Source of the DNA: an uncultured Bacteroidales bacterium
Lineage (GTDB): Bacteria > Bacteroidota > Bacteroidia > Bacteroidales > FEN-979
DNA length: 64,000 nt
Direction of reading: 5' to 3'
NCBI GenBank assembly: GCA_903877385.1
Contig: CAIRDP010000006.1
Span: 43,231 to 107,230 of the forward strand
Shown: positions 3,330 through 51,120 of the stretch, one piece after another
How positions within the stretch are numbered: the stretch's first letter is position 1
How the letters are laid out: each line of letters begins with the position of its first letter
The notes under the pieces: generated by a model
Told to the model about the DNA's origin: nothing
The model's database searches: none
What the model saw: only the letters and a program-made list of their open reading frames with translations
Program-made: the position numbers and the translations under genes

Positions 3330-3358
3330 GGAAAATCAGAAGGATCTGAGTAGCTTTG
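3327..3358 (+). promoter_or_regulatory. Bacteroidota sigma-ABfr-type promoter of nrfHA
   Basis: TTTG (3327-3330), 20-nt spacer, TAGCTTTG (3351-3358); matches TTTG-N19-21-TAnnTTTG. Confidence 0.75.
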
Positions 3359-3373
3359 TTAGCAGATTAACAA
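3356..3373. promoter_or_regulatory. Rex-like operator at nrfH
   Basis: TTGTTAG-CAGA-TTAACAA, one mismatch to TTGTTAA-N4-TTAACAA, overlapping the -7 element. Confidence 0.65.
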
Positions 3374-3392
3374 CTGCCTGAAAAGATCCTGA

Positions 3393-3980
3393 ATGAAAAA
3401 TTTTCTTAGAAGGCTTATACCCCCGGATCAGTGGCTGAAACCTGTAATCGTTATGCTCGGGGTTTTTTGCGGGCTTGCGGCCTATGCAATCTATATTTCG
3501 AGGGCCCCTTCCTATCTTTCTGATAATCCAGAGACCTGCATTAACTGCCACGTAATGAATCCCCAGTTTTACGACTGGGCTCACAGTTCGCACAGGAATG
3601 TCGCGAGCTGCAACGATTGCCACGTACCCCATAATAATGTGTTTGCCAAATACCTGTTCAAGGCCAGTGACGGGTTAAGGCATGCCAGTATTTTCACATT
3701 GCGCGCCGAACCCCAGGTGATCTATATAAGGGATGCCGGAAAGAAAGTAGTCCAGGGCAACTGCATACGCTGCCATGAAAAAGTAGTGGGTACGGAGTTC
3801 GTATTTTCCGTCCAGCCGAACTTTCATAATTTCCTTAAGGAAAGGACCTGCCTCGACTGCCACAGGGAAACCCCGCACAAGCGGGTCAACGGACTTTCGT
3901 CAGCTCCCAATGCACTGGTAAAAACAAAGATCGGCAGCCGCACCGAAAGGGATGAAGACGAGGCGGAGGATAAACGGTAA
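3393..3980 (+). CDS. nrfH: Cytochrome c nitrite reductase small subunit (tetraheme quinol dehydrogenase)
   Basis: N-terminal TM helix; CINCH, CNDCH, CIRCH, CLDCH; directly upstream of nrfA. Confidence 0.95.
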   Translation: MKNFLRRLIPPDQWLKPVIVMLGVFCGLAAYAIYISRAPSYLSDNPETCINCHVMNPQFYDWAHSSHRNVASCNDCHVPHNNVFAKYLFKASDGLRHASIFTLRAEPQVIYIRDAGKKVVQGNCIRCHEKVVGTEFVFSVQPNFHNFLKERTCLDCHRETPHKRVNGLSSAPNALVKTKIGSRTERDEDEAEDKR

Positions 3981-4024
3981 CAGGCCATCAGCCTGCATAA
4001 AAAAATAAAAATTGTCAGGAACAT

Positions 4025-5545
4025 ATGGAAACCATACAAAAAAGAAAACCCTGGAAAAACTGGCTGTTGTTTTTTGCCACCATGCTGGTTGTGTTTTTAC
4101 TTGGTTTGCTCGCTTCGTCGATCACACAACGTAAAGCCGAATCGGAATACGTATACAAGCCCAGGGTTAAGCTCGACGAGTATGAGCCAAGAAATTCCCT
4201 GTGGGGAGAAAATTTTCCAAGGGAATACCAGAGCTATTTGCAGACTGCCGATACCAGCTTTGCAAGCAAATATAACGGGAGCGTATCTTTCGACATGCTG
4301 TCGAGGGATCCCCGTATGGTTGTGCTCTGGGCGGGGTATGCGTTTTCGAAGGATTACAGCCAAAGCCGGGGGCATTATTATGCCATCACTGATATCCGCA
4401 ACACTCTGAGAACAGGTGCGCCTAAAGGCCCGGATGACGGACCTCAGCCTGCTACCTGCTGGACATGCAAGAGCCCTGATGTTCCGAGGATGATGGAAAA
4501 GACGGGACCAAAAGATTTTTACAAAGGGAAATGGTCTGCCAAAGGATCTGAAATTGTCAATTACATAGGCTGTGCCGACTGCCATGACCCGGGGACCATG
4601 GACCTGAGGATAACCAGGCCTGCGCTGGTGGAAGCGTTTAAGGCCATGGGCAAGGACATCAGCAAGGCAACACACCAGGAAATGCGCTCCCTCGTTTGTG
4701 CCCAGTGCCATATTGAATATTACTTCGACAAGCACCGGCCTGATGCGCCCGATGTGGCATACCTGGCTTTTCCCTGGAAATACGGTACTTCTGCCGATTC
4801 CGCTTTGAAATATTATGATGAAATCGGTTTTGCGGATTTCACCCACCAGCTGAGCCGGGCATCCATACTTAAGGCGCAACATCCCGATTATGAACTTTAT
4901 CTTACGGGCATACATGCCGACCGCGGGGTTGCCTGTGCCGACTGCCATATGCCGTATATCAAAGAAGGCGGACAGAAGTTCACCAGCCATAAGATCACCA
5001 GCCCCCTTGCGAACATTTCAAACACCTGCCAGGTTTGCCACAGGGAAAGTGAAGCAGCTTTGAGGGAGAATGTGTATGAGAGGCAGGATAAAATAAAACA
5101 GATTAGGGACCTGGCCGAAACGGAGCTGGTAAAGGCCCATGTTGAAGCCAAAGCGGCCTGGGATGCAGGCGCCAGTGAAAAGGAAATGGGGCCGGGATTA
5201 AAACATATACGGAATGCGCAGTGGTACTGGGATTACTCTGCTGCCAGCCACGGGGCTTCTTTCCATTCACCGGTCGAGGTTTCGAGACTTATAGGATTGT
5301 CAATAAACGAAGCCCAGGAAGCCCGGGTAGAACTGGCCCGCATTTTGGTCAGGTACGGGAAAAACAATGAAATATCATATCCCGATATCGCCACTAAGGA
5401 GAAAGCACAAAAATTCATAGGTTTGCAAATGGAAAACCTGGTAAAAGAAAAACAGGAGTTCCTGAAAACTTTGGTGCCTGTATGGGAACTGCAGGCAAAA
5501 GAACGTGAAAACAAATGGGTCAAGCCCGAAAACGAAAAAGACTGA
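4025..5545 (+). CDS. nrfA: Ammonia-forming cytochrome c nitrite reductase
   Basis: Lys-ligated heme-1 motif CWTCK plus four CxxCH motifs; CHIEYYF and KAQHPDYE motifs. Confidence 0.96.
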   Translation: METIQKRKPWKNWLLFFATMLVVFLLGLLASSITQRKAESEYVYKPRVKLDEYEPRNSLWGENFPREYQSYLQTADTSFASKYNGSVSFDMLSRDPRMVVLWAGYAFSKDYSQSRGHYYAITDIRNTLRTGAPKGPDDGPQPATCWTCKSPDVPRMMEKTGPKDFYKGKWSAKGSEIVNYIGCADCHDPGTMDLRITRPALVEAFKAMGKDISKATHQEMRSLVCAQCHIEYYFDKHRPDAPDVAYLAFPWKYGTSADSALKYYDEIGFADFTHQLSRASILKAQHPDYELYLTGIHADRGVACADCHMPYIKEGGQKFTSHKITSPLANISNTCQVCHRESEAALRENVYERQDKIKQIRDLAETELVKAHVEAKAAWDAGASEKEMGPGLKHIRNAQWYWDYSAASHGASFHSPVEVSRLIGLSINEAQEARVELARILVRYGKNNEISYPDIATKEKAQKFIGLQMENLVKEKQEFLKTLVPVWELQAKERENKWVKPENEKD

Positions 5546-5547
5546 TT

Positions 5548-6000
5548 ATGAGCCTGGAAGAAAAGATCAACAATGACATTAAAGCAGCCATGCTTGCCAG
5601 GGAACAGGAAAAACTGGAAGCCATACGTGCCGTTAAGGCCGCCATACTGCTGGAAAAGTCAAAGGAAAGCGGAACCGGCGCTATAGATGAGGCTGCCGAA
5701 CTGAAGATATTGCAGAAACTTGTAAAACAAAGAAAAGAGTCGGCCGAGGTTTATACAGCCGGTAAGCGGGAAGACCTTGCAAAAAAGGAGATGTTCGAAG
5801 CCTCCATTATCGAAGCCTACTTGCCTAAGCAGCTGAGCCCCACCGATGTCGAGGAAAAGATCAGGCAAATCATTGCCCAGACCGGTGCTGCATCCATGAA
5901 AGACATGGGCAAGGTAATGGGCATTGCGGCAAAGGAATTCGCAGGAAGGGCTGATAATAAAATGATCTCGGAGAATGTAAAACGCCTTCTTGGCGGATAA
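5548..6000 (+). CDS. GatB/YqeY domain protein
   Basis: MSLEEKINNDIKAAMLAR...KQRKESAEVY...DMGKVMG; start moved to the ATG at 5548, just after the nrfA stop. Confidence 0.9.
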   Translation: MSLEEKINNDIKAAMLAREQEKLEAIRAVKAAILLEKSKESGTGAIDEAAELKILQKLVKQRKESAEVYTAGKREDLAKKEMFEASIIEAYLPKQLSPTDVEEKIRQIIAQTGAASMKDMGKVMGIAAKEFAGRADNKMISENVKRLLGG

Positions 6001-6036
6001 ACCCTTAAAATACCCGATATTTACAAATACGGACCT

Positions 6037-6960
6037 ATGGATTTTCTTACTCCTCAGCGCTGGAAGGATTATGAATTGATTGATACAGGCGGGCTTGAAA
6101 AGCTTGAGCGTTTCGGGCAATTCATATTGGCCCGTCCTGAGCCCCAGGCCGTTTGGAAGAAAGCGCTTAGCGAAAGCGAATGGGAGAAAATTGCCTATGC
6201 CAGGTACAGGAGGAATAAAGGAACGGATCCGGCAAAATCTGAAAATTTCGATAAGGGGGAATGGATCAGGATGAAAAAGATCCCTGATCAATGGAAGATC
6301 AGTTTTCAGTATAAAAACATGGACCTCAGGTTCCGCCTGGGGCTCACTGCATTCGGACATATCGGGGTTTTTCCCGAACAGGCGGTTAACTGGGAATTCA
6401 TTTATGATTTCATCTCGGGCCGGAACGATAAACAAGGGAAGGATGGACAAGCTAAAGGATTCAGGGTGCTTAATCTCTTTGCCTATACCGGGGGAGCTTC
6501 CCTTGCGGCCAAAGCAGCAGGAGCCGAAGTTGTCCATGTCGACTCCTCAAAACCTACCTTGAACTGGGCCAGGGAGATGATGGAATTGTCAAATCTTGAC
6601 GGGATCCGCTGGGTCGTCGAAGATGCCCTGAAATTTATCAGGAGGGAAGCTAAAAGGGGGAATAAATACAACGGGATAATCCTGGACCCGCCGGCATACG
6701 GACGGGGACCTGAAGGCGAAAAATGGATGCTGCAGGACAGCATAGACGAGATGATTTCGCATTGCAGCGAGATCCTGCTTCCCTCGGAAAGCTTTATGAT
6801 CTTCAGCCTTTATTCCATGGGCTTTTCTTCCCTTATTGCCGAAAACCTGGTAAAAACACATTTTCAAACCGGGCGCCTGAACGAAACTGCCGAACTCTTT
6901 TTCCCCGACAGGAATGGCCGGAAACTTCCCCTCGGAACCCTGCTCAGGCTCACTGACTGA
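6037..6960 (+). CDS. Class I SAM-dependent methyltransferase (RlmI/K-like)
   Basis: VLNLFAYTGGASL SAM-binding motif; IILDPPAYG; HIGVFPEQ. Confidence 0.88.
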   Translation: MDFLTPQRWKDYELIDTGGLEKLERFGQFILARPEPQAVWKKALSESEWEKIAYARYRRNKGTDPAKSENFDKGEWIRMKKIPDQWKISFQYKNMDLRFRLGLTAFGHIGVFPEQAVNWEFIYDFISGRNDKQGKDGQAKGFRVLNLFAYTGGASLAAKAAGAEVVHVDSSKPTLNWAREMMELSNLDGIRWVVEDALKFIRREAKRGNKYNGIILDPPAYGRGPEGEKWMLQDSIDEMISHCSEILLPSESFMIFSLYSMGFSSLIAENLVKTHFQTGRLNETAELFFPDRNGRKLPLGTLLRLTD

Positions 6961-6967
6961 GGCAGCA

Positions 6968-33140: not shown

Positions 33141-33148
33141 TAAATTTG
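33141..33148 (+). promoter_or_regulatory. -7 element of the nuo operon promoter
   Basis: TAAATTTG, 28 nt upstream of the nuoA ATG. Confidence 0.65.
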
Positions 33149-33158
33149 CGGTCAGATC

Positions 33159-33174
33159 TGTTAACATGTTAACA
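33159..33174. promoter_or_regulatory. Rex-like operator at nuoA
   Basis: Perfect palindrome TGTTAA-CATG-TTAACA between the -7 element and the ATG. Confidence 0.7.
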
Positions 33175-33176
33175 TT

Positions 33177-33527
33177 ATGAGTGCTGAAAGCCTGATTCTA
33201 TTTTTTATAGTCGGGGCATTTTTGGTTGGTATCGCCCTGCTGTTTTCGAGCCTAGTCCCGCCTACGTCCACCAACCCCCAGAAAGCCGAAGCGTATGAGT
33301 GCGGCATCCCCACCGAAGGTATAACCTGGTTGCAGTTCAATGTCGGGTATTATCTTTTTGCCATAATCTTCCTGGTATTCGATGTGGAAACAGTCTTTAT
33401 TTTCCCCTGGGCTGTCATGATGAAATCCATGGGAATGACTGCTTTTATCGAGATCATCATTTTCTTTTTCGTATTGGGTGTAGGACTTCTTTATGCCTGG
33501 AAGAAAGGAGCTTTGAAATGGGAATAA
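33177..33527 (+). CDS. nuoA: Complex I subunit A
   Basis: YECG; FLVFDVE; AWKKGALKW. Confidence 0.95.
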
Positions 33528-34075
33528 AAAGCATGAAGGAAAAGGATTTCCGGGACAACGAAACCCTTGAGTTGTTCAAGAGATCCGGTAGCAATGTGTT
33601 GATGACAACCATCGATGCCGTAATTGACTGGGGGCGTTCCAATTCGGTATGGCCCCTGACCTTTGCGACCAGCTGCTGCGGGATTGAAATGATGGCCACC
33701 GGAGCCGCGCGCCATGACTTTGCCCGTTTCGGGATTGAAGTTTACCGTGCCAGCCCCCGCCAGGCCGATGTGATCGTGGTTGCTGGAACCATCGTCAACA
33801 AAATGGCTCCTGTTCTCAAGCGCTTGTATGACCAGATGTCGGAACCGAGGTATGTTATAGCTATGGGCGCCTGCGCTGTTTCTGGCGGTCCTTTTTACTA
33901 TAATTCCTATCATGTGGTCAGGGGTGTGGATCAGGTGATCCCCGTGGATGTATATATCCCCGGCTGCCCTCCGCGTCCTGAAGCCTTACTCTACGGGATC
34001 ATGCAGCTCCAGAGGAAAATCAAACTGGAAACCATAACCCGCCCCGAAGAATCCATGATCATGGGACATAAATAA
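33518..34075 (+). CDS. nuoB: Complex I subunit B (N2 cluster)
   Basis: TSCCGIEM; MGAC; PGCPPRP; start refined to 33518. Confidence 0.95.
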
Positions 34076-34079
34076 ACAA

Positions 34080-34111
34080 TTTTCGCTATTTCGCTATTTC
34101 ACCATTTCGCT
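34080..34111 (+). repeat. 8-bp tandem array between nuoB and nuoC
   Basis: ttttcgct atttcgct atttcacc atttcgct. Confidence 0.75.
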
Positions 34112-34121
34112 ACTTTTACAT

Positions 34122-34580
34122 ATGGATAACGAAACCTTAAAAGCCAGGATCCTTGAGATTGTGCCTGAAGCACAGCTGGAGGAAAACAAGCAGTATCTCA
34201 CACTGCTGGTTCCTGCAGCCAAACTTCATGACCTGGCAATTAAAATGAAGGATACACCGGAGCTTGCTTTCGATTACCTGATCTGTCTCAGCGGGGTGGA
34301 TTATGGAAAGCAACTTGCTGTTGTATATCACATGAATTCCATCCTGCACAAACATATGGTTGTTCTAAAGGTTAAGACCGATGACCGTTCTGATCCGGCT
34401 TTCGACACTGTAAGCGATATTTGGCGCACTGCCGAGTTTCATGAACGCGAGACCTATGACATGTTTGGTATCAGGTTTAACAATCATCCCGACCTCCGCC
34501 GGATCTTCCTTGAGGAAGACTGGAAAGGGTATCCTCTTCGCAAGGATTATGTGGATGAAGTAAATATCGTTGAATTCTAG
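34122..34580 (+). CDS. nuoC: Complex I subunit C
   Basis: ERETYDMFGIRF..HPDLRRI...W.GYPLRKDY. Confidence 0.95.
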   Translation: MDNETLKARILEIVPEAQLEENKQYLTLLVPAAKLHDLAIKMKDTPELAFDYLICLSGVDYGKQLAVVYHMNSILHKHMVVLKVKTDDRSDPAFDTVSDIWRTAEFHERETYDMFGIRFNNHPDLRRIFLEEDWKGYPLRKDYVDEVNIVEF

Positions 34581-34583
34581 TCT

Positions 34584-35711
34584 ATGAAAGAGATAGTAAA
34601 CCTGCCCGTCAGCAAGATAGAGGAGGAGGAGTACCATATTAACATGGGGCCCCAGCATCCCTCGACGCACGGAGTTCTTCGGCTGCTGGTATCCCTCCAG
34701 GGAGAGATGGTTAAAAGCCTGAAGCCACATTGCGGCTATATTCATCGCGGCATTGAGAAAATGTGCGAAAAGGATACCTACCCCCAGGTGATTCACCTCA
34801 CCGACAGGATGGATTATCTTTCGGCACATATTAACAACCATGCGGTATGCCTCCTTGTTGAGAAAGCATTGGAGATTGAGGTTCCTGAACGGGTAAAATA
34901 CATCCGTACCATCATGGACGAGCTTACCCGCATCCAGTCGCACCAGCTCTGGTGGTCAAGTTTTGGTATGGACCTGGGAGGCCTGACCTGTTTCTTTTAT
35001 GGCCTTCGCGACCGGGAAATGATACTCGACATCTGGGAAGAAACAACAGGAAGCAGGTTCCTTCAAAGTTACAATTGCCCGGGAGGTGTGATGCAGGACA
35101 TCCATCCGAACTTCCAGAAGAAAGTTCATGCATTCATCAAGACATTTAAGAAAAAGATAAAGGATTACGACCGTCTCCTTTCAGGCAATGTTATTTTTGA
35201 AAACCGCAGCCAGGGAGTTGGCTTGCTTTCAAAGGAAGATGCAATCAGCTATGGAGTTACCGGCCCTTCGGGACGTGGTTCGGGCTGGTCATGCGACATC
35301 CGCAAGGTAGAGCCTTACAGTATGTACTCACAGGTTCATTTTAACGAAGTTTTAAGGTACGAATGCGATACCTATGCAAGATATATGGTCCGCATGCAGG
35401 AAATGCACGAATCGATGAACATCATAGAGCAGCTTATCGATAACATCCCTGAGGGCGATCATTCGGCCAAAATGAAAGCGGTGATCAAGTTGCCTGCCGG
35501 TGAATATTTTCAGCGTGTTGAATCGGCCCGTGGAGAACTAGGCGTTTATGTGGTGAGCGACGGCAATAAAACCCCGTACAGGATGAAGTTCCGCACCCCG
35601 AGTTTCACCAACCTGGGTGTACTTGACCATATCAGCCGCGGGATGAAGATTGCCGACCTCGTTGCCATCGGAGCTTCCCTCGATTTAGTAATTCCGGATA
35701 TTGACAGATAA
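34584..35711 (+). CDS. nuoD: Complex I subunit D
   Basis: NMGPQHPSTHGVLR; HRGIEK; RMDY; ESARGE; C-terminal DIDR; no Ni-binding CxxC motifs. Confidence 0.95.
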   Translation: MKEIVNLPVSKIEEEEYHINMGPQHPSTHGVLRLLVSLQGEMVKSLKPHCGYIHRGIEKMCEKDTYPQVIHLTDRMDYLSAHINNHAVCLLVEKALEIEVPERVKYIRTIMDELTRIQSHQLWWSSFGMDLGGLTCFFYGLRDREMILDIWEETTGSRFLQSYNCPGGVMQDIHPNFQKKVHAFIKTFKKKIKDYDRLLSGNVIFENRSQGVGLLSKEDAISYGVTGPSGRGSGWSCDIRKVEPYSMYSQVHFNEVLRYECDTYARYMVRMQEMHESMNIIEQLIDNIPEGDHSAKMKAVIKLPAGEYFQRVESARGELGVYVVSDGNKTPYRMKFRTPSFTNLGVLDHISRGMKIADLVAIGASLDLVIPDIDR

Positions 35712-35723
35712 AAACAAGGTAAT

Positions 35724-36812
35724 ATGACCTTTAATATTTACGATTTTACATCGTTTAACAGGTGGATTGACGAGGGGCTGAACAGCATCATGTCGCCTAC
35801 CTGGGCACTGATCACCGAAATGGCAATCATAGGGATAGTCTTCCTGCTTTTTTATGCAGTTGTCGGTCTTTTCCTGGTATATGCCGAAAGAAAGGTTTGT
35901 GCTTTCATGCAGAACCGTGTGGGCCCTAACCGTGTCGGGCCTTACGGGATCTTCCAGACCATTGCCGACTTTATCAAATTGCTGATGAAAGAGCTGGTGT
36001 ACATCAAGGATTCCGATAAACTGCTGTTCAACCTTGCCCCGTTCATCGTGATCATTGCTTCTTTCATGGCCCTTTCAGCCGTACCGTTTGCCAAGGGGCT
36101 TCATGCCATTGATTTCGACATCGGCATACTATATGTGATCGCCGTTTCTTCGCTTGGGGTTGTCGGCATCCTGCTGGCTGGCTGGTCCTCAAACAATAAA
36201 TATTCCCTCATCGGTGCAATGAGGAGCGGCGCCCAGATCGTCAGCTATGAACTCTCGGTTGGGCTGTCATTGCTTACAATCATCGTTTTAGCCGGGACCA
36301 TGCAGTTTTCGGAGATCGTTGAAATGCAGAGGAACGGATGGTTCATTTTCAAAGGTCATATCCCGGCAGTTATCGCCTTTATTGTTTTCCTGATCGCCAG
36401 CACGGCCGAAACAAACCGTGGGCCTTTTGACCTGGCTGAAGCCGAATCGGAGCTTACGGCAGGCTTCCATACCGAATATTCGGGGATCAAGTTTGCATTT
36501 TTCTTCCTGGCCGAATATATGAACATGTTCCTGGTCGCATCAATCGGAGCAACCGTATTCTGGGGTGGCTGGATGCCTTTCCATGTGTCGGGATGGGCAG
36601 GGTTCAACACCATCATGGATTACATCCCGCCTTTTGTCTGGTATATCGGTAAAACCGCCTTTATCATCTGGCTGATGATGTTGTTCAAATGGACATTCCC
36701 GCGACTGCGTATCGACCAGCTCCTCACCCTGGAGTGGAAATATCTGCTCCCGATCAACCTGGTCAACATTCTCTTTATGGCATTTTTAGTATTAATGCAT
36801 TGGCATTTTTAG
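35724..36812 (+). CDS. nuoH: Complex I subunit H
   Basis: ERKV...[10 protein letters not shown]; [16 protein letters not shown]. Confidence 0.96.
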
Positions 36813-36818
36813 CATACT

Positions 36819-37298
36819 ATGAACAGCTTCTTTAAGTATTTTTCAGATATTTTCCACGGGGTGAAATCCCTGCTCATCGGGATGTCGGTCACAGGCCGGT
36901 ACTTCTTCAGCCCCGGGCAGATCGTAACACAGCAGTATCCTGAAAACAGGAAAAACCTGCAGATGTTTGAACGTTTCAAGGGTGAGGTCATAATGCTTCA
37001 CGATGAGAACAACCAGCATCGCTGCAATGGCTGCGGTATTTGCGAAAATAACTGCCCGAACGGTTCAATCGAGGTCATCCCGGTAAAGATCACAGGCGAA
37101 GACGGCAAACCGAAACGTATCATCGACAAGCACATCTATCATCTTGGAATGTGCACTTTCTGCGGATTATGCGTAAAAAGCTGCCCCTCCAATGCCCTTG
37201 GTTTCGGACAGGAGTTTGAGCATGCAGTTTTTGACCGTTCCAAACTGAATAAAGTGTTAAATCAACCCGGTTCATCCATTATTAAAGGTGTAGAGTAA
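36819..37298 (+). CDS. nuoI: Complex I subunit I (2x[4Fe-4S])
   Basis: CNGCGICENNCP; CTFCGLCVKSCP. Confidence 0.94.
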   Translation: MNSFFKYFSDIFHGVKSLLIGMSVTGRYFFSPGQIVTQQYPENRKNLQMFERFKGEVIMLHDENNQHRCNGCGICENNCPNGSIEVIPVKITGEDGKPKRIIDKHIYHLGMCTFCGLCVKSCPSNALGFGQEFEHAVFDRSKLNKVLNQPGSSIIKGVE

Positions 37299-37807
37299 TG
37301 ACGAACAATCAATTCATGTTTTTGCTATTTTCGGTGGTGATCGTAGTTTTTTCACTGCTTACAGTGACCAGCCGCCGCATCCTGAGGGCAGCCACTTTCC
37401 TGCTGTTTGTGCTGGTCTCGACGTCAGGATTGTATTTTCTGCTGAGGTTTAACTTCCTTGCGGCAATCCAGCTTACCTTGTATGCAGGAGGTATCGTGGT
37501 CCTGATCATTTTCTCGGTGCTGCTGACCAGCCATATCAGCGAAAAACTGGCGATTCCGCCGGTTACAAAGAGGATATTTGCCGCAATTGCCGCCATTGCA
37601 GGTGCGGTTTTATGCATACTCACTATTTTGCAGACCCAGTTTGTACAAAAGACATTCGACCCTGCAAGAACTAATATCAGGACTATAGGCGAAGGCATGC
37701 TGAGTACCGGTAAGTACGGCTACGCACTGCCTTTCGAAGTCATCAGCGTTTTACTGCTGGCAGCCATGATAGGCTCAATAATTCTGGCTAAGAAAAGAAA
37801 AGATTAA
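37298..37807 (+). CDS. nuoJ: Complex I subunit J
   Basis: QLTLYAGGIVVL; PFEVISVLLLAAMIGS. Confidence 0.93.
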   Translation: MTNNQFMFLLFSVVIVVFSLLTVTSRRILRAATFLLFVLVSTSGLYFLLRFNFLAAIQLTLYAGGIVVLIIFSVLLTSHISEKLAIPPVTKRIFAAIAAIAGAVLCILTILQTQFVQKTFDPARTNIRTIGEGMLSTGKYGYALPFEVISVLLLAAMIGSIILAKKRKD

Positions 37808-37823
37808 TTAAAAAATACCCGTT

Positions 37824-38141
37824 ATGTTTGAAGGTGTACCTATTCATTGGTTCCTGGTCCTGTCCACTTTGATGTTTTTCATTGGGATTTATGGCTTCCT
37901 GGTAAGGAAAAACCTGATTACCATGCTGATGTCAATCGAACTCATTTTGAATTCGGTTTGTATCAATTTTGTGGCATTCAATAAGATCCTTTACCCAGGA
38001 CATCTCGAAGGGATGTTTTTCACACTTTTCATCATTGCGGTTGCCGCAGCCGAGGCTTCCGTAGCGATCGCAATCATCATCAACATATACCGCCGTCTGG
38101 TGAACATCGATGTGGAGAAGATGGATGAAATGAAATACTAG
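37824..38141 (+). CDS. nuoK: Complex I subunit K
   Basis: MSIELILN; AAAEASVAIA. Confidence 0.95.
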   Translation: MFEGVPIHWFLVLSTLMFFIGIYGFLVRKNLITMLMSIELILNSVCINFVAFNKILYPGHLEGMFFTLFIIAVAAAEASVAIAIIINIYRRLVNIDVEKMDEMKY

Positions 38142-38206
38142 CCATGAGGCATAAGCCATGAGCCATGTGGGAGAATATCATGGCTCATGGCTCATCACTC
38201 ATGGCT
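38140..38206. repeat. Inverted 7-bp array (AGCCATG x4, 11-nt spacer, CATGGCT x4) between nuoK and nuoL
   Basis: agccatg aggcata agccatg agccatg ... catggct catggct catcact catggct. Confidence 0.85.
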
Positions 38207-38242
38207 TTTAAAACAATAACTAACGCATAATATAACCAACAT

Positions 38243-40162
38243 ATGATCGATTTCAGTTACACTATCTGGATACTGCTGATACCTCTGATAGTATTCGTGG
38301 TCACAGGGCTTACGGGCAACAGGTTCAAACCCATTGTCACCGGGATTATAGGAACTGCGGGGCTGGGTGTTGTATTTTTGCTTTCAGTCATTACCGCGTA
38401 TAAATTCTTTTTTGTGCTCGACAAGGTTGGCGGTGCCTTTCAGCGGCTGCTGGCATTCAATCATACATGGCTGCATCTGACCGACAAGCTGCATATCGAC
38501 ATCGGTGTTTTACTTGATCCCATCTCGGTAATGATGCTTATCGTCATTTCCACCGTATCCTTTATGGTGCATATCTATTCCCTGGGTTATATGAAAGGGG
38601 AAAAAGGCTTTGCCAGGTTTTTCTCTATCCTTTCGCTGTTCAGTTTCTCTATGCTCGGGCTTGTCATTGCCACCAACATTTTCCAGATGTATATTTTCTG
38701 GGAGCTTGTAGGGGTTTCATCCTTTCTGCTGATTGGCTTCTACTATGAAAAAGACTCGGCAGTGGCTGCAAGCAAGAAAGCTTTCATTGTCACCCGTTTT
38801 GCCGACCTGGGTTTCCTTATCGGGATCCTGCTTCTTTCTTATACGACGGGCACCTTTGATTTTATTACACTCACAGGCCCGAACAGCCCGGCTTTCACTT
38901 CCGGACAGGGGATCATGTTCCTGGGAATGTCGACCATGACCTGGTCTATGCTGTTTGTCTTCATGGGTGGCGCCGGAAAATCGGCCATGTTCCCCCTGCA
39001 TATATGGCTTCCCGATGCCATGGAAGGCCCTACCCCGGTTTCGGCCCTCATCCATGCTGCCACCATGGTTGTTGCCGGTGTTTACCTTGTTGCACGTATG
39101 TTCCCGATTTTCCATCATGAACAGTCGGCCCTTGAGATCGTGGCATGGGTCGGAGGGTTCACTTCTTTATTTGCCGCGGTGATTGCATGTACGCAATATG
39201 ATATTAAGCGCGTCCTGGCCTATTCGACCATGTCGCAGATTGGCTATATGATGCTGGCCCTCGGTGTTTCAGGTTACGGGGGCGAGGATGGCCTCGGGTA
39301 TATGGCATCGATGTTCCACCTGTTCACCCATGCCTTCTTTAAAGCCTTGCTCTTCCTCGGTGCCGGCGCGATAATCCATGCCGTACATTCGAATTATATG
39401 AACGAGATGGGGGGGTTACGGAAGTACCTTCCAATCACGCATGCAACTTTCCTCATCGCCTGCCTTGCAATTTCAGGAATACCCCCGTTTGCAGGGTTCT
39501 TCAGCAAAGACGAGATCCTGGTTGCCGCCTTCCATCACAACAAAGCCTTGTTTGCCATGGAATACCTGGTTGCAGGCATGACTGCATTTTATATGTTCCG
39601 CCTTTATTTCAACGTGTTCTGGGGACAGGAACAGCATTATCATCATACTCCTCACGAAGCCCCGGTAACGATGACTATACCCCTGATCATCCTGGCTATC
39701 GGTTCGACCTTCGCAGGCTTTATTCCCTTTACAAAACTTGTAACATCCGACAGTCTTCCCTTTGAGAGCCACACAGAATGGGGAATTGCAATACCTTCAA
39801 TTCTCATCGCGCTGGCGGGTATCGGCATAGCCACTATGCTGTATATGAAGAAGTCCGACACATCAAAGAAGATTGCGACGGCTCTCGGCGGGTTTTATAC
39901 AGCCGCCTACGGCAAGTTCTACATTGACCAGGTTTATCTTTTCATTACCAAGAAAATATTGTTCAATTATGTTTCCAGGCCGGTTGCATGGTTCGACCGT
40001 CACATCGTCGACGGGACCATGAACCAGTTCGCTTATGTTACCAACGTGGTTTCCGACAGGATCAAAGGATTCCAGAGCGGCCAGCTGCAGCAGTATGCCC
40101 TCGTGTTCATCTCGGGGGTTATCGCCCTTGCTTTGTTATTCATCTATTTATGGACCAATTAA
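38243..40162 (+). CDS. nuoL: Complex I subunit L
   Basis: WELVG; GKSAMFPLHIWLPDAMEGPTPVSALIHAATMV; HAFFKALLFL. Confidence 0.96.
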   Translation: MIDFSYTIWILLIPLIVFVVTGLTGNRFKPIVTGIIGTAGLGVVFLLSVITAYKFFFVLDKVGGAFQRLLAFNHTWLHLTDKLHIDIGVLLDPISVMMLIVISTVSFMVHIYSLGYMKGEKGFARFFSILSLFSFSMLGLVIATNIFQMYIFWELVGVSSFLLIGFYYEKDSAVAASKKAFIVTRFADLGFLIGILLLSYTTGTFDFITLTGPNSPAFTSGQGIMFLGMSTMTWSMLFVFMGGAGKSAMFPLHIWLPDAMEGPTPVSALIHAATMVVAGVYLVARMFPIFHHEQSALEIVAWVGGFTSLFAAVIACTQYDIKRVLAYSTMSQIGYMMLALGVSGYGGEDGLGYMASMFHLFTHAFFKALLFLGAGAIIHAVHSNYMNEMGGLRKYLPITHATFLIACLAISGIPPFAGFFSKDEILVAAFHHNKALFAMEYLVAGMTAFYMFRLYFNVFWGQEQHYHHTPHEAPVTMTIPLIILAIGSTFAGFIPFTKLVTSDSLPFESHTEWGIAIPSILIALAGIGIATMLYMKKSDTSKKIATALGGFYTAAYGKFYIDQVYLFITKKILFNYVSRPVAWFDRHIVDGTMNQFAYVTNVVSDRIKGFQSGQLQQYALVFISGVIALALLFIYLWTN

Positions 40163-40174
40163 AACGATAAAATA

Positions 40175-41686
40175 ATGAGCTTTCTGTTATTGTTCATCGT
40201 AATCCCTGTCCTCACTGTCATCGGGATATTTTTCAGCAGGACCCATATGCAGGTTAAATGGACCGCTGTTGTTGGCATGAGTTGTCAGCTGATCATGGCC
40301 GGGCTACTCATTTATTTTTTCTTAGCTGCAAGGGCTGCCGGGAATACTGCCGAGATCCTGTTTTCCCAGGATATGGTCTGGTACAAGAACCTGAACATTC
40401 ATTTTTTCATAGGGGTTGACGGTGTATCGGTCGCCATGATCGGGCTTACCTCCATTGTGATTTTTGCCGGGATCTTTGCCTCCTGGGATGTTACTGACTT
40501 ACCAAGGGAATTTTTCACCTCCCTGATCCTTCTTTCGGCAGGGGTATTCGGGTTTTTTATTTCACTGGACCTCTTCACCCTTTTCCTTTTCTATGAAATT
40601 GCCGTGATCCCGATGTACCTGCTTATCGGAATCTGGGGAAGCGGCCCCAGGCATTATTCGGCCATGAAGCTGACATTGATGCTTATGGGCGGTTCGGCCC
40701 TGATCATGCTTGGACTGCTTGGGCTGTACTTTAATTCGGCTCCCAACGGCGGCCCCCTGACATTTAACCTGATCCAGATCTCCAAGGTAGCAATTCCAAT
40801 GCCTGCCCAGCGTTTCTTTTTCCCGTTCCTCTTTGTGGGATTCGGGGTGCTTGGCGCACTTTTCCCTTTCCACACATGGTCACCCGACGGTCATGCCTCT
40901 GCACCAACTGCAGTTTCGATGCTACATGCCGGTGTGCTGATGAAACTCGGAGGTTACGGCTGCTACCGCGTTGCAGTGTTCCTTCTTCCAGGCGCCGCTC
41001 ATGAAATGGCATGGATTTTCCTGATCCTTACAACCATCGGCGTGATTTACGGAGCCTTCGGCGCCATCTGGCAGAAAGACCTGAAATACATCAATGCATA
41101 TTCCTCGGTAAGCCATTGCGCCCTGGTGCTCTTTGCCGTGCTCATGATGAACCAGACGGCCATGAACGGAGCCATCATGCAGATGATCTCCCACGGCATC
41201 ATGACAGCCCTCTTCTTTGCACTGATCGGGATGATTTACGGACGAACACACACCAGGTATATTAACGAGATGGGCGGACTGATGAAAGTCATGCCGTTTC
41301 TTGGCGTTGCCTATGTTATCGGCGGCCTTGCTTCATTAGGGCTTCCGGGTTTCAGCGGCTTCGTTGCCGAAATGACCATTTTCGTGGGTTCTTTCCAGCA
41401 CAATGACGTGTTCCACAGGGTTTGCACCATCATTGCCGCCTCCTCTATCGTGGTTACAGCGGTATATATCCTCCGTGTTGTCGGTATCCTGCTGATGGGA
41501 AAGATCAGGAACCCCGAATTCAATCATATTATCGATGCAAAGTGGTTTGACCGTATAAGCGTGGTTACACTTATACTGGGTATTACTGCAATCGGGATGG
41601 CCCCGCTCTGGCTGAGTGATATGATCAATAACGGGCTTGTCCCGGTTATGCAAAGGATATTGCTGGCCGGTCCAATTATTCATTAA
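40175..41686 (+). CDS. nuoM: Complex I subunit M
   Basis: FYEIAVIP; PFHTWSPDGH..APT; LMKLGGYG; LGLPGFSGF. Confidence 0.95.
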   Translation: MSFLLLFIVIPVLTVIGIFFSRTHMQVKWTAVVGMSCQLIMAGLLIYFFLAARAAGNTAEILFSQDMVWYKNLNIHFFIGVDGVSVAMIGLTSIVIFAGIFASWDVTDLPREFFTSLILLSAGVFGFFISLDLFTLFLFYEIAVIPMYLLIGIWGSGPRHYSAMKLTLMLMGGSALIMLGLLGLYFNSAPNGGPLTFNLIQISKVAIPMPAQRFFFPFLFVGFGVLGALFPFHTWSPDGHASAPTAVSMLHAGVLMKLGGYGCYRVAVFLLPGAAHEMAWIFLILTTIGVIYGAFGAIWQKDLKYINAYSSVSHCALVLFAVLMMNQTAMNGAIMQMISHGIMTALFFALIGMIYGRTHTRYINEMGGLMKVMPFLGVAYVIGGLASLGLPGFSGFVAEMTIFVGSFQHNDVFHRVCTIIAASSIVVTAVYILRVVGILLMGKIRNPEFNHIIDAKWFDRISVVTLILGITAIGMAPLWLSDMINNGLVPVMQRILLAGPIIH

Positions 41687-41721
41687 AACGAAAAAATTAA
41701 AAAACAAATAAACATCTGACC

Positions 41722-43131
41722 ATGTTGATCATGAGACACGAATTACTGCTGATTGCCATCACGGTAATTCTTTTACTTGTTGAGATTTTTCTTCCTGCCG
41801 ATAAAAAGCACAGTATCATTACTCCTGCCATATTGCTGATGGCAGTTGTTCTCATCCTGGGATTCATCCCCGGGCCCACGGGAATACTGTTCGGGGGGAT
41901 GTACCAGACCACCGCACTGATCGTCATGCTTAAAAACATCCTGAATATAGGAGCATTTATAGTAATGGTGCAGAGTGCCGACTGGCTCAGGAAACCCGAG
42001 AACAAGGAAAAGATCAGCGAATATTACATCCTGCTTCTTTCAACACTGATCGGGATGCAGTATATGGTATCTTCGGGAGATTTCCTGATGTTCTACCTTG
42101 GACTTGAACTTGCAACCATTCCATTGGCAGCCTTAGCCGCCTTCGAACGCTTCAAGGAAAAATCAGCCGAAGCAGGGGTGAAACTTATTTTCTCCTCGGC
42201 ATTGTCTTCAGGCATCCTGCTCTATGGACTTTCCATGGTATACGGAACAACCGGAACCCTTTATTTTGCAGAGGTAGGCCCGGCCTTTACAGGAACCCCC
42301 CTGCAGGTTCTCGGCTTCATCTTTTTCTTTGCCGGAATGGCATTCAAAATTTCACTGGTTCCATTCCATCTCTGGACAGCCGACGTTTACGAAGGAGCTC
42401 CGGTTAATATTTCTTCATATCTATCTGTTGTTTCCAAAGGAGCTGCTGCTTTTATTCTAACAATACTTCTGTATACCGTATTCAGCAAGATAGCACTGAT
42501 GTGGAGTAACGTGCTCTATATTATTATCATTCTCACCATCACCCTGGGTAACCTCTTTGCCATCCGCCAGCAGAACCTGAAACGGTTCCTGGCCTTCTCT
42601 TCAATTGCCCAGGCTGGCTTTATACTGCTGGGTATCATAGGGCAAAGCCAGTATGGCATGGCAACGGTGATTTACTTTGTTCTTGTTTATATCTTCTCCA
42701 ACCTTGGTGCCTTCGGCGTGGTTTCCATCATTTCAAACCGTACAGGCTGCGAAACCATTAATGATTATGACGGTTTGTACAGGACCAATCCGCGGCTGGC
42801 GATGACGATGATGCTGTCGCTCTTCTCACTGGCCGGAATTCCCCCGGTAGCAGGCTTTTTCGGCAAATTCTTCCTCTTTGCCGCCGCAGCCAATCACGGC
42901 CTTTACATCCTTGTCCTTATCGCCATTATCAATACTATCATTTCATTGTACTATTACCTGCTTGTTATCAAGGCTATGTTCCTGAACCGCAGTGACCGGC
43001 CGATTCCTAAGTTTAAAAGCGATTTCTACACAAGCCTGGGCCTGATCTTATGTCTTACCGGTATTTTTGCGATCGGTATTTTCAGCCTTGTATTTGAAGT
43101 GATTAACGGGCTCAGCTTCGGATTGTATTAA
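41722..43131 (+). CDS. nuoN: Complex I subunit N
   Basis: GLELA; FKISLVPFHLWTADVYEGAP; SLAGIPP..GFFGK. Confidence 0.96.
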   Translation: MLIMRHELLLIAITVILLLVEIFLPADKKHSIITPAILLMAVVLILGFIPGPTGILFGGMYQTTALIVMLKNILNIGAFIVMVQSADWLRKPENKEKISEYYILLLSTLIGMQYMVSSGDFLMFYLGLELATIPLAALAAFERFKEKSAEAGVKLIFSSALSSGILLYGLSMVYGTTGTLYFAEVGPAFTGTPLQVLGFIFFFAGMAFKISLVPFHLWTADVYEGAPVNISSYLSVVSKGAAAFILTILLYTVFSKIALMWSNVLYIIIILTITLGNLFAIRQQNLKRFLAFSSIAQAGFILLGIIGQSQYGMATVIYFVLVYIFSNLGAFGVVSIISNRTGCETINDYDGLYRTNPRLAMTMMLSLFSLAGIPPVAGFFGKFFLFAAAANHGLYILVLIAIINTIISLYYYLLVIKAMFLNRSDRPIPKFKSDFYTSLGLILCLTGIFAIGIFSLVFEVINGLSFGLY

Positions 43132-46643: not shown

Positions 46644-46674
46644 TTTGTATTCAATCAATATTTTTGTACTTTTG
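46644..46674 (+). promoter_or_regulatory. Promoter of exbB-exbD-exbD-tonB
   Basis: TTTG (46644-46647), 19-nt spacer, TACTTTTG (46667-46674). Confidence 0.75.
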
Positions 46675-46740
46675 TGACCCTGCAAACAATCGCAAAAAAC
46701 TAATAAATTCAAGTATTTTATAACTTAAATTCAATTAACG

Positions 46741-47559: not shown

Positions 47560-47626
47560 TATTTTTGGCGTTACAGCAAATTATTTACATAATTTTTGTG
47601 TATTTATAATTTAAAACCAGAATTCC

Positions 47627-48271: not shown

Positions 48272-48302
48272 GGAGAAACCAGAACTATAAAGAAAATCCT
48301 AT

Positions 48303-48938
48303 ATGGCCGAAATAATTCAAGAAGAAAAAGGCAAAAAAGGTGGTAAACGCAGGCCTAAGAAGCACGGCACACGTATCGACATGACCCCTATGGTCGACCT
48401 GATGTGTTTGCTGATCACCTTCTTCATGCTAACCACCGCTTTCAGTAAGGCGAAAGTGATGGTCATCACTATGCCCGACAAGGAGGACCATAATACGGAC
48501 AAGAATACTCCGCAGATTTCTGCTTTCCGTACCCTTAATATTCTGCTTGCCGGCGACAACAAGGTGTATTATTACATCGGGATGATCAAACCTAAAGAGG
48601 CCCCACCTGCATTGGTTAAAACTGATTTCAGCAAGGACGGCATCCGTAAGGTTTTACTGGATAAAAACCGCGACCTGTTCACCAAAATTGCCGAATACCG
48701 CGATAAAAGGGTTACAGGTAAGATCGTTGTGTCGGATACCACACTCGAAAACGAGATCAAAAGGATGAAGAGGGATGATAAAAAAGGCCCCATCGTCCTG
48801 ATCAAAGCTGATGAGAAAGCTAAATACAAGGACATTGTCAACATAATCGACGAGATGGCTATCTGCAATATTGCCAGTTACGCTATTGTGGACATCTCTC
48901 AGCCCGAAAAAGACCTGGTGAAGAATGCTCCGAAATAA
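48303..48938 (+). CDS. exbD: ExbD/TolR protein 2
   Basis: IDMTPMVDLMCLLITFF; IKADEKAKY. Confidence 0.9.
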   Translation: MAEIIQEEKGKKGGKRRPKKHGTRIDMTPMVDLMCLLITFFMLTTAFSKAKVMVITMPDKEDHNTDKNTPQISAFRTLNILLAGDNKVYYYIGMIKPKEAPPALVKTDFSKDGIRKVLLDKNRDLFTKIAEYRDKRVTGKIVVSDTTLENEIKRMKRDDKKGPIVLIKADEKAKYKDIVNIIDEMAICNIASYAIVDISQPEKDLVKNAPK

Positions 48939-48967
48939 TTTTTTAATGACATTTAAACATAAACCGT

Positions 48968-49750
48968 ATGGCAATTGAAAAACAGCGTGTAGAATCGCTG
49001 GAGGAAATCGTCTTCAAGAACCGTAATAAGGAATACGGCTCATATGTTCTTCGAAAGAAGTACCGCCGGTATCTTACGATTTCTTTAATCGTTGGCATCC
49101 TCGTCCTTCTCTCCGCCGCTGCCTATCCTTTGATTAATGCATACCTGAACAAGGAAAAATTGCTCAGGGAAAAGGAGAAATCAGTAACGGCAGAAATGCT
49201 GAACATGCCCAAAGAAGACCTGCCTCCCCCTCCGCCGCCGCCACCACCACCTGAGGCACTTGTTGAAAAGGTGAAGTTTACCGCACCCAAGGTTGTGGAA
49301 GACACCAACGTGGAATCCGATTTCGGTAAGCAGGACCTGCTGAACCAGAATAAAAATACGGAAGTCCCGACCGAAGAAGTCCAGGTGGAAGAAAAAGAGG
49401 TAAAAACCCAGGTAATAGAACAGAAAGTGGAAGCCGAAGTGTTCCTCATCGTTGAAGAACCTCCTACATTCCCCGGTGGGGAAGCTGCCCTTTATAAATG
49501 GCTTGGGGAAAACCTCAAATATCCCGAAGAAGCCAAGGAACTTGGTATACAGGGACGTGTTTTCGTTGCTTTCGTTGTTGAACCCGACGGATCGACCAGT
49601 AATGTGGTTGTGAAACGCGGTATCGGCGGCGGTTGCGACGAAGAAGCAATCCGTATCGTGAAAGCCATGCCCAAATGGGCTGCCGGCAAGCAACGCGGAC
49701 AGCCAGTGCGTGTGCAGTTTAACTTACCCATCAAGTTTACATTGCAGTAA
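48968..49750 (+). CDS. tonB: Energy transducer TonB
   Basis: TM helix, poly-Pro linker, YPEEA..GIQGRV; C-terminal TonB domain. Confidence 0.92.
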   Translation: MAIEKQRVESLEEIVFKNRNKEYGSYVLRKKYRRYLTISLIVGILVLLSAAAYPLINAYLNKEKLLREKEKSVTAEMLNMPKEDLPPPPPPPPPPEALVEKVKFTAPKVVEDTNVESDFGKQDLLNQNKNTEVPTEEVQVEEKEVKTQVIEQKVEAEVFLIVEEPPTFPGGEAALYKWLGENLKYPEEAKELGIQGRVFVAFVVEPDGSTSNVVVKRGIGGGCDEEAIRIVKAMPKWAAGKQRGQPVRVQFNLPIKFTLQ

Positions 49751-49770
49751 AACTGCGATAAACTAAACAG

Positions 49771-49837
49771 AAACCCTTAATTTTTCCTTTTGCCGGGTAT
49801 CATCCGGAAGATTTGAAGGAAAGATTAGGGGTTTTTT
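49771..49837 (+). terminator. Long-stem terminator after tonB
   Basis: aaacccttaatttttcctt pairs with aaggaaagattaggggttt (G-U wobbles), then a T-run. Confidence 0.6.
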
Positions 49838-49848
49838 ACTTGAAAAGC

Positions 49849-50982
49849 ATGAATGCCGCCACCCTTAGTCCTTTTGTAAGCAGCAAATTCAGGTTCTGGT
49901 CTTTTATATCTATGGTGCTGCTGGTGTTCGTGCATGGTTATAATATGCAGGAGCGTTACCTGCAACCCTGGACCATCCCGGGAGAGCCTTTTTCAATTTC
50001 AGGTTTTATTGAATATTTCCTTGCAAACGGGATCTTCCGGTTCAGGATACCCATGCTGTTCATCATATCGGGCTACCTTTTCGCAATGCATGATGACCGC
50101 CCGTATAAATCCCGTGCAAGGAAGCGGTTTCGCACCTTGTTCCTTCCTTACCTGATATGGAGCGCCCTGGGCCTTGTATTCACCTTTGGGCTTGAGATGT
50201 TTCCCTGGAGCCGTGCCCTGGTCTCTGGATCGCATGTGGTACAGATAGACAATACAAGGATGCTGCTTCATGATTATAAATTGTATGAGATGCTGGTGCG
50301 CTGGATACTACTCCCGGTACCCTACCAGCTCTGGTTCATCCGTGTGCTTTTCATATATAACCTTGCTTACCCCGGGATCCGGTGGTGTGTCATGAACAGG
50401 ACAGGGAGATGGATCTTCTTTGCTTTTGCTTCCCTGCTGTGGTTAGCCACTATCAATGTTGGGATAATTGAAGGCGAAGGTCTGCTTTTCTTTTCACTAG
50501 GGATCTGGATGCAAAAGAACAGCTTCAATATTGAAAGTCCGTCATCCTGGCTGAAACCCTCACTGTGGGGCCTTTTGTTCGTTTCAATTGCATTCCTAAA
50601 AACCTTCCTGGCCTGGAAAGGGCAACAATTCCTTGGAGGTGCAGCCTTCCCCGTCCTTACTCTGATACATAAAGTGGTTGTACTGAGCGGGCTTATTGCA
50701 TGCTGGTACGGCCTCGATCCAATCGTAAAATGGTTCATGAAGCGCCCCTGGTTCACCTGGCTGAGCGCATTCGCATTCATTATATATGCTATGCATACAC
50801 CCCTGGTTGCATATGCCATCACTCCTTTCCTTTCCCTGCTTGAACCAATGCCTGCCTTCCACCTTGCAGCTTTTATTCTGCTACCCTTAATTGTCATCGG
50901 GTTTTGCATTATCACAGGATTTCTTCTCCGTATCCTGGTCCCGAAAATATATGGCGCCCTAACCGGCGGAAGAGGAATGTGA
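49849..50982 (+). CDS. Acyltransferase-3 family membrane protein
   Basis: VLLVFVHG; RIPMLFIISGY; YQLWFIR; IYAMH; about 10 TM helices. Confidence 0.85.
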   Translation: MNAATLSPFVSSKFRFWSFISMVLLVFVHGYNMQERYLQPWTIPGEPFSISGFIEYFLANGIFRFRIPMLFIISGYLFAMHDDRPYKSRARKRFRTLFLPYLIWSALGLVFTFGLEMFPWSRALVSGSHVVQIDNTRMLLHDYKLYEMLVRWILLPVPYQLWFIRVLFIYNLAYPGIRWCVMNRTGRWIFFAFASLLWLATINVGIIEGEGLLFFSLGIWMQKNSFNIESPSSWLKPSLWGLLFVSIAFLKTFLAWKGQQFLGGAAFPVLTLIHKVVVLSGLIACWYGLDPIVKWFMKRPWFTWLSAFAFIIYAMHTPLVAYAITPFLSLLEPMPAFHLAAFILLPLIVIGFCIITGFLLRILVPKIYGALTGGRGM

Positions 50983-51089
50983 AGGCTTTGCCTTCAAAGG
51001 CATGTATATTCGAAAACAATTGAATATCAGCGAACTGCCCGGATTTATAATTCCTGCTAATTTAGATTCTGTCCAAAAGAAAACTTTAG

Positions 51090-51097
51090 TAACTTTG
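51090..51097 (+). promoter_or_regulatory. -7 element of the hdr-flx promoter
   Basis: TAACTTTG, 34 nt upstream of the hdrC ATG. Confidence 0.65.
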
Positions 51098-51120
51098 TAC
51101 TGTTAAAATATTAACAGTAC
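51097..51120. promoter_or_regulatory. Rex-like operator at hdrC
   Basis: GTACTGTTAA-AATA-TTAACAGTAC, perfect 10-bp arms, covering the expected transcription start. Confidence 0.75.

Follow-up and report, generated by a model that had tools for sequence, protein, structure and literature searches.

The window analysed here is a 64-kb stretch of DNA (contig C6:43231-107230) from a metagenome-assembled genome (MAG) of an uncultured Bacteroidales bacterium (G000; 4.3 Mb in 67 contigs), and our subject is a palindrome that recurs in it upstream of three operons as a predicted operator of the redox-sensing repressor Rex. The first operon encodes NrfH and NrfA, which form a cytochrome c nitrite reductase converting nitrite to ammonium. 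The second encodes an 11-subunit complex I without nuoEFG, so that its NADH-oxidising module is missing; NuoE- and NuoF-like proteins are found only alongside the [FeFe]-hydrogenase hydCBA on contig C63, likewise behind a Rex-type box. The third is predicted to encode an Hdr-Flx-type NADH-linked complex, with hdrC, hdrB, hdrA and mvhD/flxD followed by two Fe-S proteins and an NAD-binding FlxA-like reductase. We consider it very probable that the palindromes at nrfH, nuoA and hdrC are Rex operators, and the observations behind this reading are an excess of the motif, its position in promoters, its conservation in orthologous promoters, the presence of a rex gene in the genome and the same box upstream of rex in relatives. 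Coordinates of the features discussed are collected in Table 1.

A search of the window with the pattern TGTTAANNNNTTAACA (TGTTAA-N4-TTAACA), allowing at most one mismatch, returned exactly three matches, one each in the nrfH, nuoA and hdrC promoters, as compared to 0.08 expected, and none of 100 shuffles reached three. When the window was scanned with an 18-bp position weight matrix (PWM), the nrfH and nuoA sites each scored 19.5 bits and the hdrC site 23.9 bits, while the rest of the window stayed at or below 10.1 bits, indicating no operator at its other promoters. All three operators are single rather than double boxes and, as read from the DNA, each lies between a Bacteroidota-type -7 box (TAnnTTTG) and a start codon. 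The nrfH operator overlaps the 3' end of its -7 box by 3 nt and ends 19 nt 5' of the nrfH ATG, the nuoA operator begins 9 nt past its -7 box, leaving 1 nt between its end and the nuoA ATG, and the hdrC operator begins 2 nt past its -7 box and is separated from the hdrC ATG by 14 nt. The last of these is contained in a 24-bp inverted repeat (51097-51120) whose perfect 10-nt arms, GTACTGTTAA and TTAACAGTAC, flank AATA. An earlier sequence-only reading of the window had described the motif as perfect at nuoA and hdrC with one mismatch at nrfH, had placed the hdrC copy inside a 24-bp palindrome, had noted that each copy overlaps a TAnnTTTG -7 element or follows it by no more than about 10 nt, and had seen no copy at the other promoters that it inspected, and our searches agree with it on each of these points (offsets from the -7 box of -3, 9 and 2 nt for nrfH, nuoA and hdrC).

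The Bacteroides promoter consensus is TTTG-N19-21-TAnnTTTG, and a putative promoter of this type precedes nrfHA (Table 1). The -7 box of the nuo operon is retained as TAAnTTTG or TAnnTTTG in the family alignment. That of the hdr-flx operon immediately precedes the operator in the majority of aligned orthologous promoters and is degenerate in G011, G014 and G016; no TTTG is present at the usual -33 distance in the hdr-flx promoter. Just 5' of this -7 box is a conserved block that hardly varies within the genus and can be traced in most of the family's genera; it holds an imperfect inverted repeat (AGATTCT ... AGAAATCT). This block is a candidate site for a second factor and may be bound by an activator.

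Table 1. Predicted operators, promoter elements and genes (positions without a contig name are those of the window; 18-bp refers to the length of the full box)
Feature	Location	Strand	Sequence or evidence
Putative Bacteroidota-type promoter of nrfHA	3327-3358	+	TTTG (3327-3330), 20 nt, TAGCTTTG (3351-3358); read from DNA
Predicted Rex-type operator, nrfHA promoter	3356-3373 (18-bp), core 3357-3372		TTGTTAGCAGATTAACAA; core TGTTAGCAGATTAACA, 1 mismatch
nrfH	3393-3980	+	NapC/NirT family, E = 1.3e-11 (Pfam)
nrfA	4025-5545	+	Cytochrom_C552, E = 1.6e-174 (Pfam)
-7 box of nuo operon	33141-33148	+	TAAATTTG
Predicted Rex-type operator, nuo promoter	33158-33175 (18-bp), core 33159-33174		CTGTTAACATGTTAACAT, perfect core
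nuoABCDHIJKLMN	33177-43131	+	Pfam match for each subunit
Conserved block 5' of hdrC -7 box	51058-51089	+	TAATTTAGATTCTGTCCAAAAGAAAACTTTAG
-7 box of hdr-flx operon	51090-51097	+	TAACTTTG
Predicted Rex-type operator, hdr-flx promoter	51100-51117 (18-bp), core 51101-51116		CTGTTAAAATATTAACAG, perfect core
hdrC-hdrB-hdrA-mvhD/flxD, two Fe-S proteins, FlxA-like reductase	51132-57949	+	CCG domain; FlpD, E = 3.4e-51; NAD_binding_1 with DHODB_Fe-S_bind
rex (outside the window)	G000 C63:53792-54433	minus	Only match to the Rex DNA-binding domain in the genome
Best-scoring site, hdrA-hdrCB-hdrA-mvhD-mvhG-mvhA cluster	C63		26.4 bits
Double Rex-type boxes	C63:62226/62243, C63:71148/71165, C63:74548/74565, C61:157211/157228

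A genome-wide scan for the motif with enrichment statistics, one of the checks proposed with the sequence-only reading, gave an excess of about 25-fold, near confinement to promoters and a preferred position at the -7 box. The perfect motif occurs eight times in the genome versus 0.32 expected from hexamer frequencies, and it ranks third in over-representation among all hexamer-N4-reverse-complement palindromes. Allowing one mismatch raises the count to 41 copies, 32 of them intergenic, in a genome of which the open reading frame (ORF) calls cover 92.6%; these are crude longest-ORF calls, and start-codon distances outside the window are approximate. With the PWM, which was symmetrised and has the consensus YTGTKAAwnnwTTMACAR, we found 30 sites of at least 18 bits compared to 0 and 2 in two composition-matched controls, and 43 sites of at least 16 bits compared to 1 and 6 in the same controls. 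The top 45 or so PWM sites nearly all have a gene start no more than about 150 nt downstream, and almost all sites of at least 18 bits closely precede genes of redox, fermentation and energy metabolism. Where a strict TAnnTTTG is nearby, as it is for 17 strong sites, the distance from the end of that box to the operator is -3 to +9 nt in 13 cases. Three other palindromes are also over-represented in this genome, namely ACACTC-N4-GAGTGT (10 copies versus 0.04 expected), GCGGAT-N4-ATCCGC (10 versus 0.36) and AGATAA-N4-TTATCT (6 versus 0.35), which could represent repeats or be bound by different regulators.

The composition of the strong sites bears on how many regulators are involved. Eight sites have two TGTTAA half-sites, six are TGTTAA/TGTGAA hybrids and three have two TGTGAA half-sites, where 7.1, 7.8 and 2.1 are expected. 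Because hybrids are as frequent as independence predicts, both kinds of half-site appear to be served by one regulator, which would accept TGTGAA as well as TGTTAA, and we rejected for this genome the alternative of separate regulons for TGTGA and TGTTA sites. The inner A6/T11 pair, present in 16 of the 34 intergenic matches to TGTKA-N6-TMACA, marks the sites as Rex-type over CRP-type.

Beyond the best site in the genome (Table 1), strong sites precede genes for the trimeric [FeFe]-hydrogenase hydCBA and a second [FeFe]-hydrogenase-like gene, for crotonase, 3-hydroxyacyl-CoA dehydrogenase and thiolase (crt-hbd-thiolase), for methylmalonyl-CoA epimerase and carboxyltransferase together with an oxaloacetate-decarboxylase-like alpha subunit, and for glutamate dehydrogenase (gdhA) and an ammonium transporter. 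They also precede genes for pyruvate:ferredoxin oxidoreductase (PFOR), 2-oxoacid:ferredoxin oxidoreductase and aldehyde:ferredoxin oxidoreductase, as well as for citrate lyase, acyl-CoA synthetase, biotin carboxylase and an SQR-like flavoprotein. This target content is typical of Rex. Sites of 17-18 bits include genes without an obvious redox role and may partly be noise. The sequence-only reading had proposed a single regulator for the nrfHA, nuo and hdr-flx modules; the single regulator is supported by the shared motif, the one rex gene and the footprints described below, whereas its restriction to three modules does not hold, as the predicted regulon comprises about 30-40 operators and reaches far beyond them. 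Four promoters outside the window carry abutting double Rex-type boxes with a start-to-start distance of exactly 17 bp, and the genes behind them are [FeFe]-hydrogenase-like, a small HATPase, a histidine kinase and methylmalonyl-CoA carboxyltransferase.

Orthologous promoters were then used for footprinting. The 19 genomes that supplied hdrC orthologues represent the genus, the family and one further family, and the operator was present just after the -7 box in 18 of the 19 promoters; the exception, G022 from the other family, has no clear box. Upstream of nuoA, the operator is found at -17 to -19 from the ATG in all 18 nuoA-carrying genomes of the family, and none of the genomes from the order's other families has it at that position. 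In alignments anchored on the box, the mean frequency of the commonest base was 1.00 and 0.94 in the two half-sites of the nuoA operator as compared to 0.56 in its spacer, and 0.98 and 0.95 as compared to 0.59 for hdrC, with the flanks of the boxes at 0.57-0.77. Invariant half-sites around a varying spacer are, on the evidence of these alignments, the classical footprint of a dimeric DNA-binding protein. The nrfH operator sits at -36/-37 in all five nrfH-carrying genomes of the genus, and no operator was found upstream of nrfH in any of 10 genomes from other genera and families. Since the nrfH site is confined to the genus, nrfHA is a recent addition to the predicted regulon. Footprinting, which had likewise been suggested as a check, supports the nuoA and hdrC sites across the family and the nrfH site only within the genus.

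As had been noted from the letters of the window, no rex gene lies within it, and the genome search for rex that had been suggested turned up a single copy, on contig C63. The encoded protein has 213 aa and matches PF06971 (Put_DNA-bind_N, a winged-helix DNA-binding domain) with 52.7 bits against a cut-off of 27 (E = 2.2e-13) and NCBIfam NF003995 with 200.2 bits against a cut-off of 126, over positions 4-210 of 213. Among solved structures it matches 2vt2 (B. subtilis Rex) with E = 7e-35, and also 5zz5, 3keo, 3wg9 and 3ikt. Rex structures bind NAD(H) through a GxGxxG loop and an acidic residue that follows the second beta-strand, and in the alignment of these Rossmann motifs GLGNLG corresponds to GVGNLG of B-Rex and AAFDIN to MAFDIN. 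By all of these matches, the C63 protein is a genuine Rex.

A scan of one genome per species retrieved 80 loci with close relatives of this Rex, nearly all of them from uncultured Bacteroidales, Prolixibacteraceae, Draconibacterium, Lentimicrobiaceae and Marinilabiliales MAGs of lake, peat or sediment origin. Of the 79 usable Bacteroidales/Marinilabiliales loci, 17 have a box of 18 bits or more no further than 200 nt upstream of rex, as compared to 6 of 2303 control windows from the same loci; one example is TTGTTAAATAATTAACAA, 90 nt upstream of a relative's rex. As autoregulation of rex is usual in the Rex family, this is the strongest available link between the motif and the protein. Within the genus, rex and the hybrid gene before it, which has receiver, HisKA and HATPase domains, share a 10-nt overlap (C63:53792-55557 for the pair), and this arrangement makes co-transcription of the two probable. 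The receiver-kinase gene is itself preceded, at a distance of about 40 nt, by CTGTTAAAAATTAACAA (C63:55580-55600), an inverted repeat that resembles a Rex box but has 3 nt rather than 4 in its spacer. The rex genes of more distant relatives come with a strong box of their own.

The most serious competitor for these operators is a regulator of the Crp/Fnr family, in which case the regulon would sense oxygen or some other signal rather than NADH. The outer bases are common to CRP-type and Rex-type boxes, the TGTGA-N6-TCACA geometry equally spans 16 bp, and a gene with cNMP_binding and HTH_Crp_2 domains (C63:97281-97997) adjoins the top-scoring 26.4-bit site, and a box of 15.6 bits precedes the start of that gene by 14 nt. 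However, no orthologue of this gene (E <= 1e-30) was found in G003 and G005-G009 of the genus or in G013, G014, G017 and G018 of the family, and all ten of these genomes retain the nuoA and hdrC operators as well as rex, for which reason we rejected this particular paralogue as the regulator. The conserved inner A6/T11 pair is Rex-like, and the occurrence of the same box upstream of rex in 17 related lineages also speaks against a Crp/Fnr protein. Activators of the Crp type usually bind at -41.5 or -61.5. The sites described here instead lie on the -7 box and the likely transcription start, which is the position of a repressor. We therefore regard binding by a Crp/Fnr-family regulator as improbable, although another Crp/Fnr paralogue would still be a formal candidate. 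The product of the adjacent gene is FNR-like with an N-terminal cysteine cluster (CxxC...C), and the gene lies (in the C63:97281-98020 region) between the 15.6-bit and 26.4-bit boxes by the hdrA-hdrCB-hdrA-mvhDGA cluster. It is patchy within the genus and, judging by these boxes, is probably itself a Rex target.

Since each of the three copies falls after the -7 box and before the start codon, the palindromes are probably transcribed, and they might accordingly be RNA hairpins of 5' leaders, acting through attenuation, stability or translation, instead of DNA operators. The hdrC copy indeed folds into a 13-bp hairpin of -13.3 kcal/mol (z = -5.9), but the folds at nrfH and nuoA (-5.6 and -3.6 kcal/mol; z = -0.7 and -0.2) do not stand out from those of shuffled sequences, and the extra arm bases on which the strong hdrC hairpin depends are not kept in relatives. 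At 40 or more unrelated promoters, moreover, it is the sequence of the half-sites that is conserved and not mere pairing, with no compensatory changes. With two of the three folds at shuffle level and the hdrC arms unconserved, we rejected the hairpin reading, to which we attach very little probability. Still less credible is that the three copies are chance palindromes without a common function. Intergenic DNA and the motif are both AT-rich, yet three copies in the window and eight in the genome were observed where 0.08 and 0.32 are expected, controls of the same composition gave 0-2 sites versus 30 by PWM, the pattern read backwards occurs 0-2 times versus 10-18 in genomes of the genus, and the footprints keep the half-sites while the spacer varies. 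Chance is refuted by the counts and the footprints taken together.

With Rex as the preferred reading, a mechanism can be outlined. By analogy with the Rex family, we infer that the C63 Rex binds these operators, represses the genes behind them and is released by NADH. A Rex dimer would bind the 18-bp box YTGTKAA-N4-TTMACAR and, as the box lies on or just past the -7 element, would cover the likely transcription start and block RNA polymerase when the NADH/NAD+ ratio is low. Accumulating NADH would then bind Rex and cause it to leave the DNA, so that NrfHA, the 11-subunit Nuo and Hdr-Flx would be derepressed together with about 30 other promoters, including those of hydrogenases, ferredoxin oxidoreductases and fermentation enzymes. 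Hdr-Flx oxidises NADH in Desulfovibrio. Derepression under reductive stress makes physiological sense for Hdr-Flx and for NrfHA, the latter as an electron sink, and is less direct for a Nuo that lacks NuoEFG.

The distribution of rex and of the motif allows a further comparison. Among 31 relatives of the same order, 27 have rex, while in an even sample of 200 genomes from the phylum only 8 do. The pattern TGTKAA-N4-TTMACA occurs 10-18 times per genome in the genus and 3-12 times in the family, as compared to 0-2 times when read backwards. Three genomes of the order that lack rex (G023, G024 and G026) have 2, 0 and 2 matches versus 1, 0 and 4 backwards and thus no excess, and 192 rex-less Bacteroidota genomes show no excess of the pattern either. 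The phylum sample shows only that rex-less genomes have no excess and cannot tell Rex apart from other factors of anaerobes.

Several points weigh against the Rex reading. Eight rex-positive Bacteroidota genomes outside the family have no excess of the exact pattern, so the presence of rex alone does not predict a large regulon; from these counts, rex appears necessary but not sufficient for a large regulon of the exact motif. In the genome studied here, the box associated with rex itself is weak (12.6 bits) and lies on the start codon of the preceding receiver-kinase gene, a box that reaches about 16 bits in sister MAGs. The nrfH site is confined to the genus, which makes descent and selection harder to separate. 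As the Nuo complex has no NADH-binding module, it is tied to NADH only indirectly. Scores of the PWM in this genome are partly circular, since its training sites came from there. Lastly, the organism is an uncultured MAG whose genome sequence matched only metagenomic DNA runs and no RNA-seq run; one metatranscriptome holds 5% of its sequence words and thus comes from a relative, not this organism.

On balance, we lean slightly towards the broader view that this uncultured freshwater Prolixibacteraceae-like lineage uses Rex as a global regulator, with about 30-40 operators that unite nrfHA, a NuoEFG-less complex I, two Hdr-type electron-bifurcating complexes, hydrogenases and fermentation branches under one NADH signal, and that this is the first Rex regulon to be reconstructed in Bacteroidota. 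If this is true, dissimilatory nitrate reduction to ammonium in anoxic lake water would be switched by the redox state of the cell and not by nitrite only. Rex is among the best-understood redox regulators and its logic is textbook, and the predicted operators provide a testable regulatory map for anaerobic Bacteroidales, which are rarely cultivated and whose energy metabolism (11-subunit Nuo, Hdr-Flx, Hdr-Mvh and NrfHA) is poorly understood. A role of the 11-subunit Nuo and of the Hdr complexes in the disposal of reducing equivalents is hinted at by their predicted co-regulation with enzymes that consume NADH. The gain of a site by nrfHA within one genus suggests a regulon whose growth is in progress, and the PWM can be used for annotating Rex regulons in Bacteroidota metagenomes.

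Comparable systems are known from three groups of bacteria. In Streptomyces coelicolor, Rex reportedly represses nuoA-N and other respiratory genes through a promoter operator from which NADH releases it (Brekasis and Paget 2003); nuo is a classical target of Rex in Streptomyces, and this system is a precedent for it here. The Streptomyces nuo genes encode a full 14-subunit NADH-oxidising enzyme behind a TGTGAA-type box, whereas the operon in our window has no nuoEFG and the box of this genome is mostly TGTTAA.

The closest likeness in the box itself is to clostridial Rex, whose box is TTGTTAANNNNTTAACAA (PMC4600107), while the general Rex box is given as TTGTGAANNNNTTCACAA (Ravcheev et al. 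2012 as quoted in PMC5317091). The sequence-only reading had pointed to the clostridial consensus, and the genome consensus indeed equals TTGTTAANNNNTTAACAA and tolerates TTGTGAANNNNTTCACAA. As far as they are cited in PMC4600107 and PMC6405883, the Rex systems of C. acetobutylicum, C. kluyveri and acetogens use the same 18-bp box, including T at the fourth core position, and have targets like those found here, namely crt/hbd/thiolase-type genes, [FeFe]-hydrogenases and ferredoxin-linked oxidoreductases. Repression in clostridia is relieved by NADH, and by analogy the same logic would apply here. Unlike in clostridia, the promoters here are of the Bacteroidota -33/-7 type, TGTGAA and hybrid half-sites appear to be accepted, and the predicted targets include respiratory modules, namely nrfHA, the 11-subunit nuo, Hdr-Flx and Hdr-Mvh.

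Desulfovibrio offers a parallel in a Gram-negative anaerobe in which Rex is likewise predicted to control operons of anaerobic respiration and energy conservation, with sat, apr, dsr, qmo, coo hydrogenase and ATP synthase as predicted targets (Christensen et al. 2015; RegPrecise content per PMC5322295). These targets belong to sulfate respiration, and nrfHA and flx-hdr are not in the list quoted by PMC5322295; unlike in Desulfovibrio, the atp promoter here is without a site. The 2012 comparative study of Rex, as quoted in PMC5317091, covered Firmicutes, Thermotogales, Actinobacteria, Chloroflexi, Deinococcus-Thermus and Proteobacteria. The sequence-only reading knew of no Rex regulon in Bacteroidota, and in the literature that we searched we also found no description of one, although a curated RegPrecise regulog is possible (the Bacteroidaceae collection has 35 regulogs). 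Set beside these systems, the mechanism is not new; what is new is the phylum, the set of targets (nrfHA, the 11-subunit nuo, Hdr-Flx and Hdr-Mvh) and the visible growth of the regulon.

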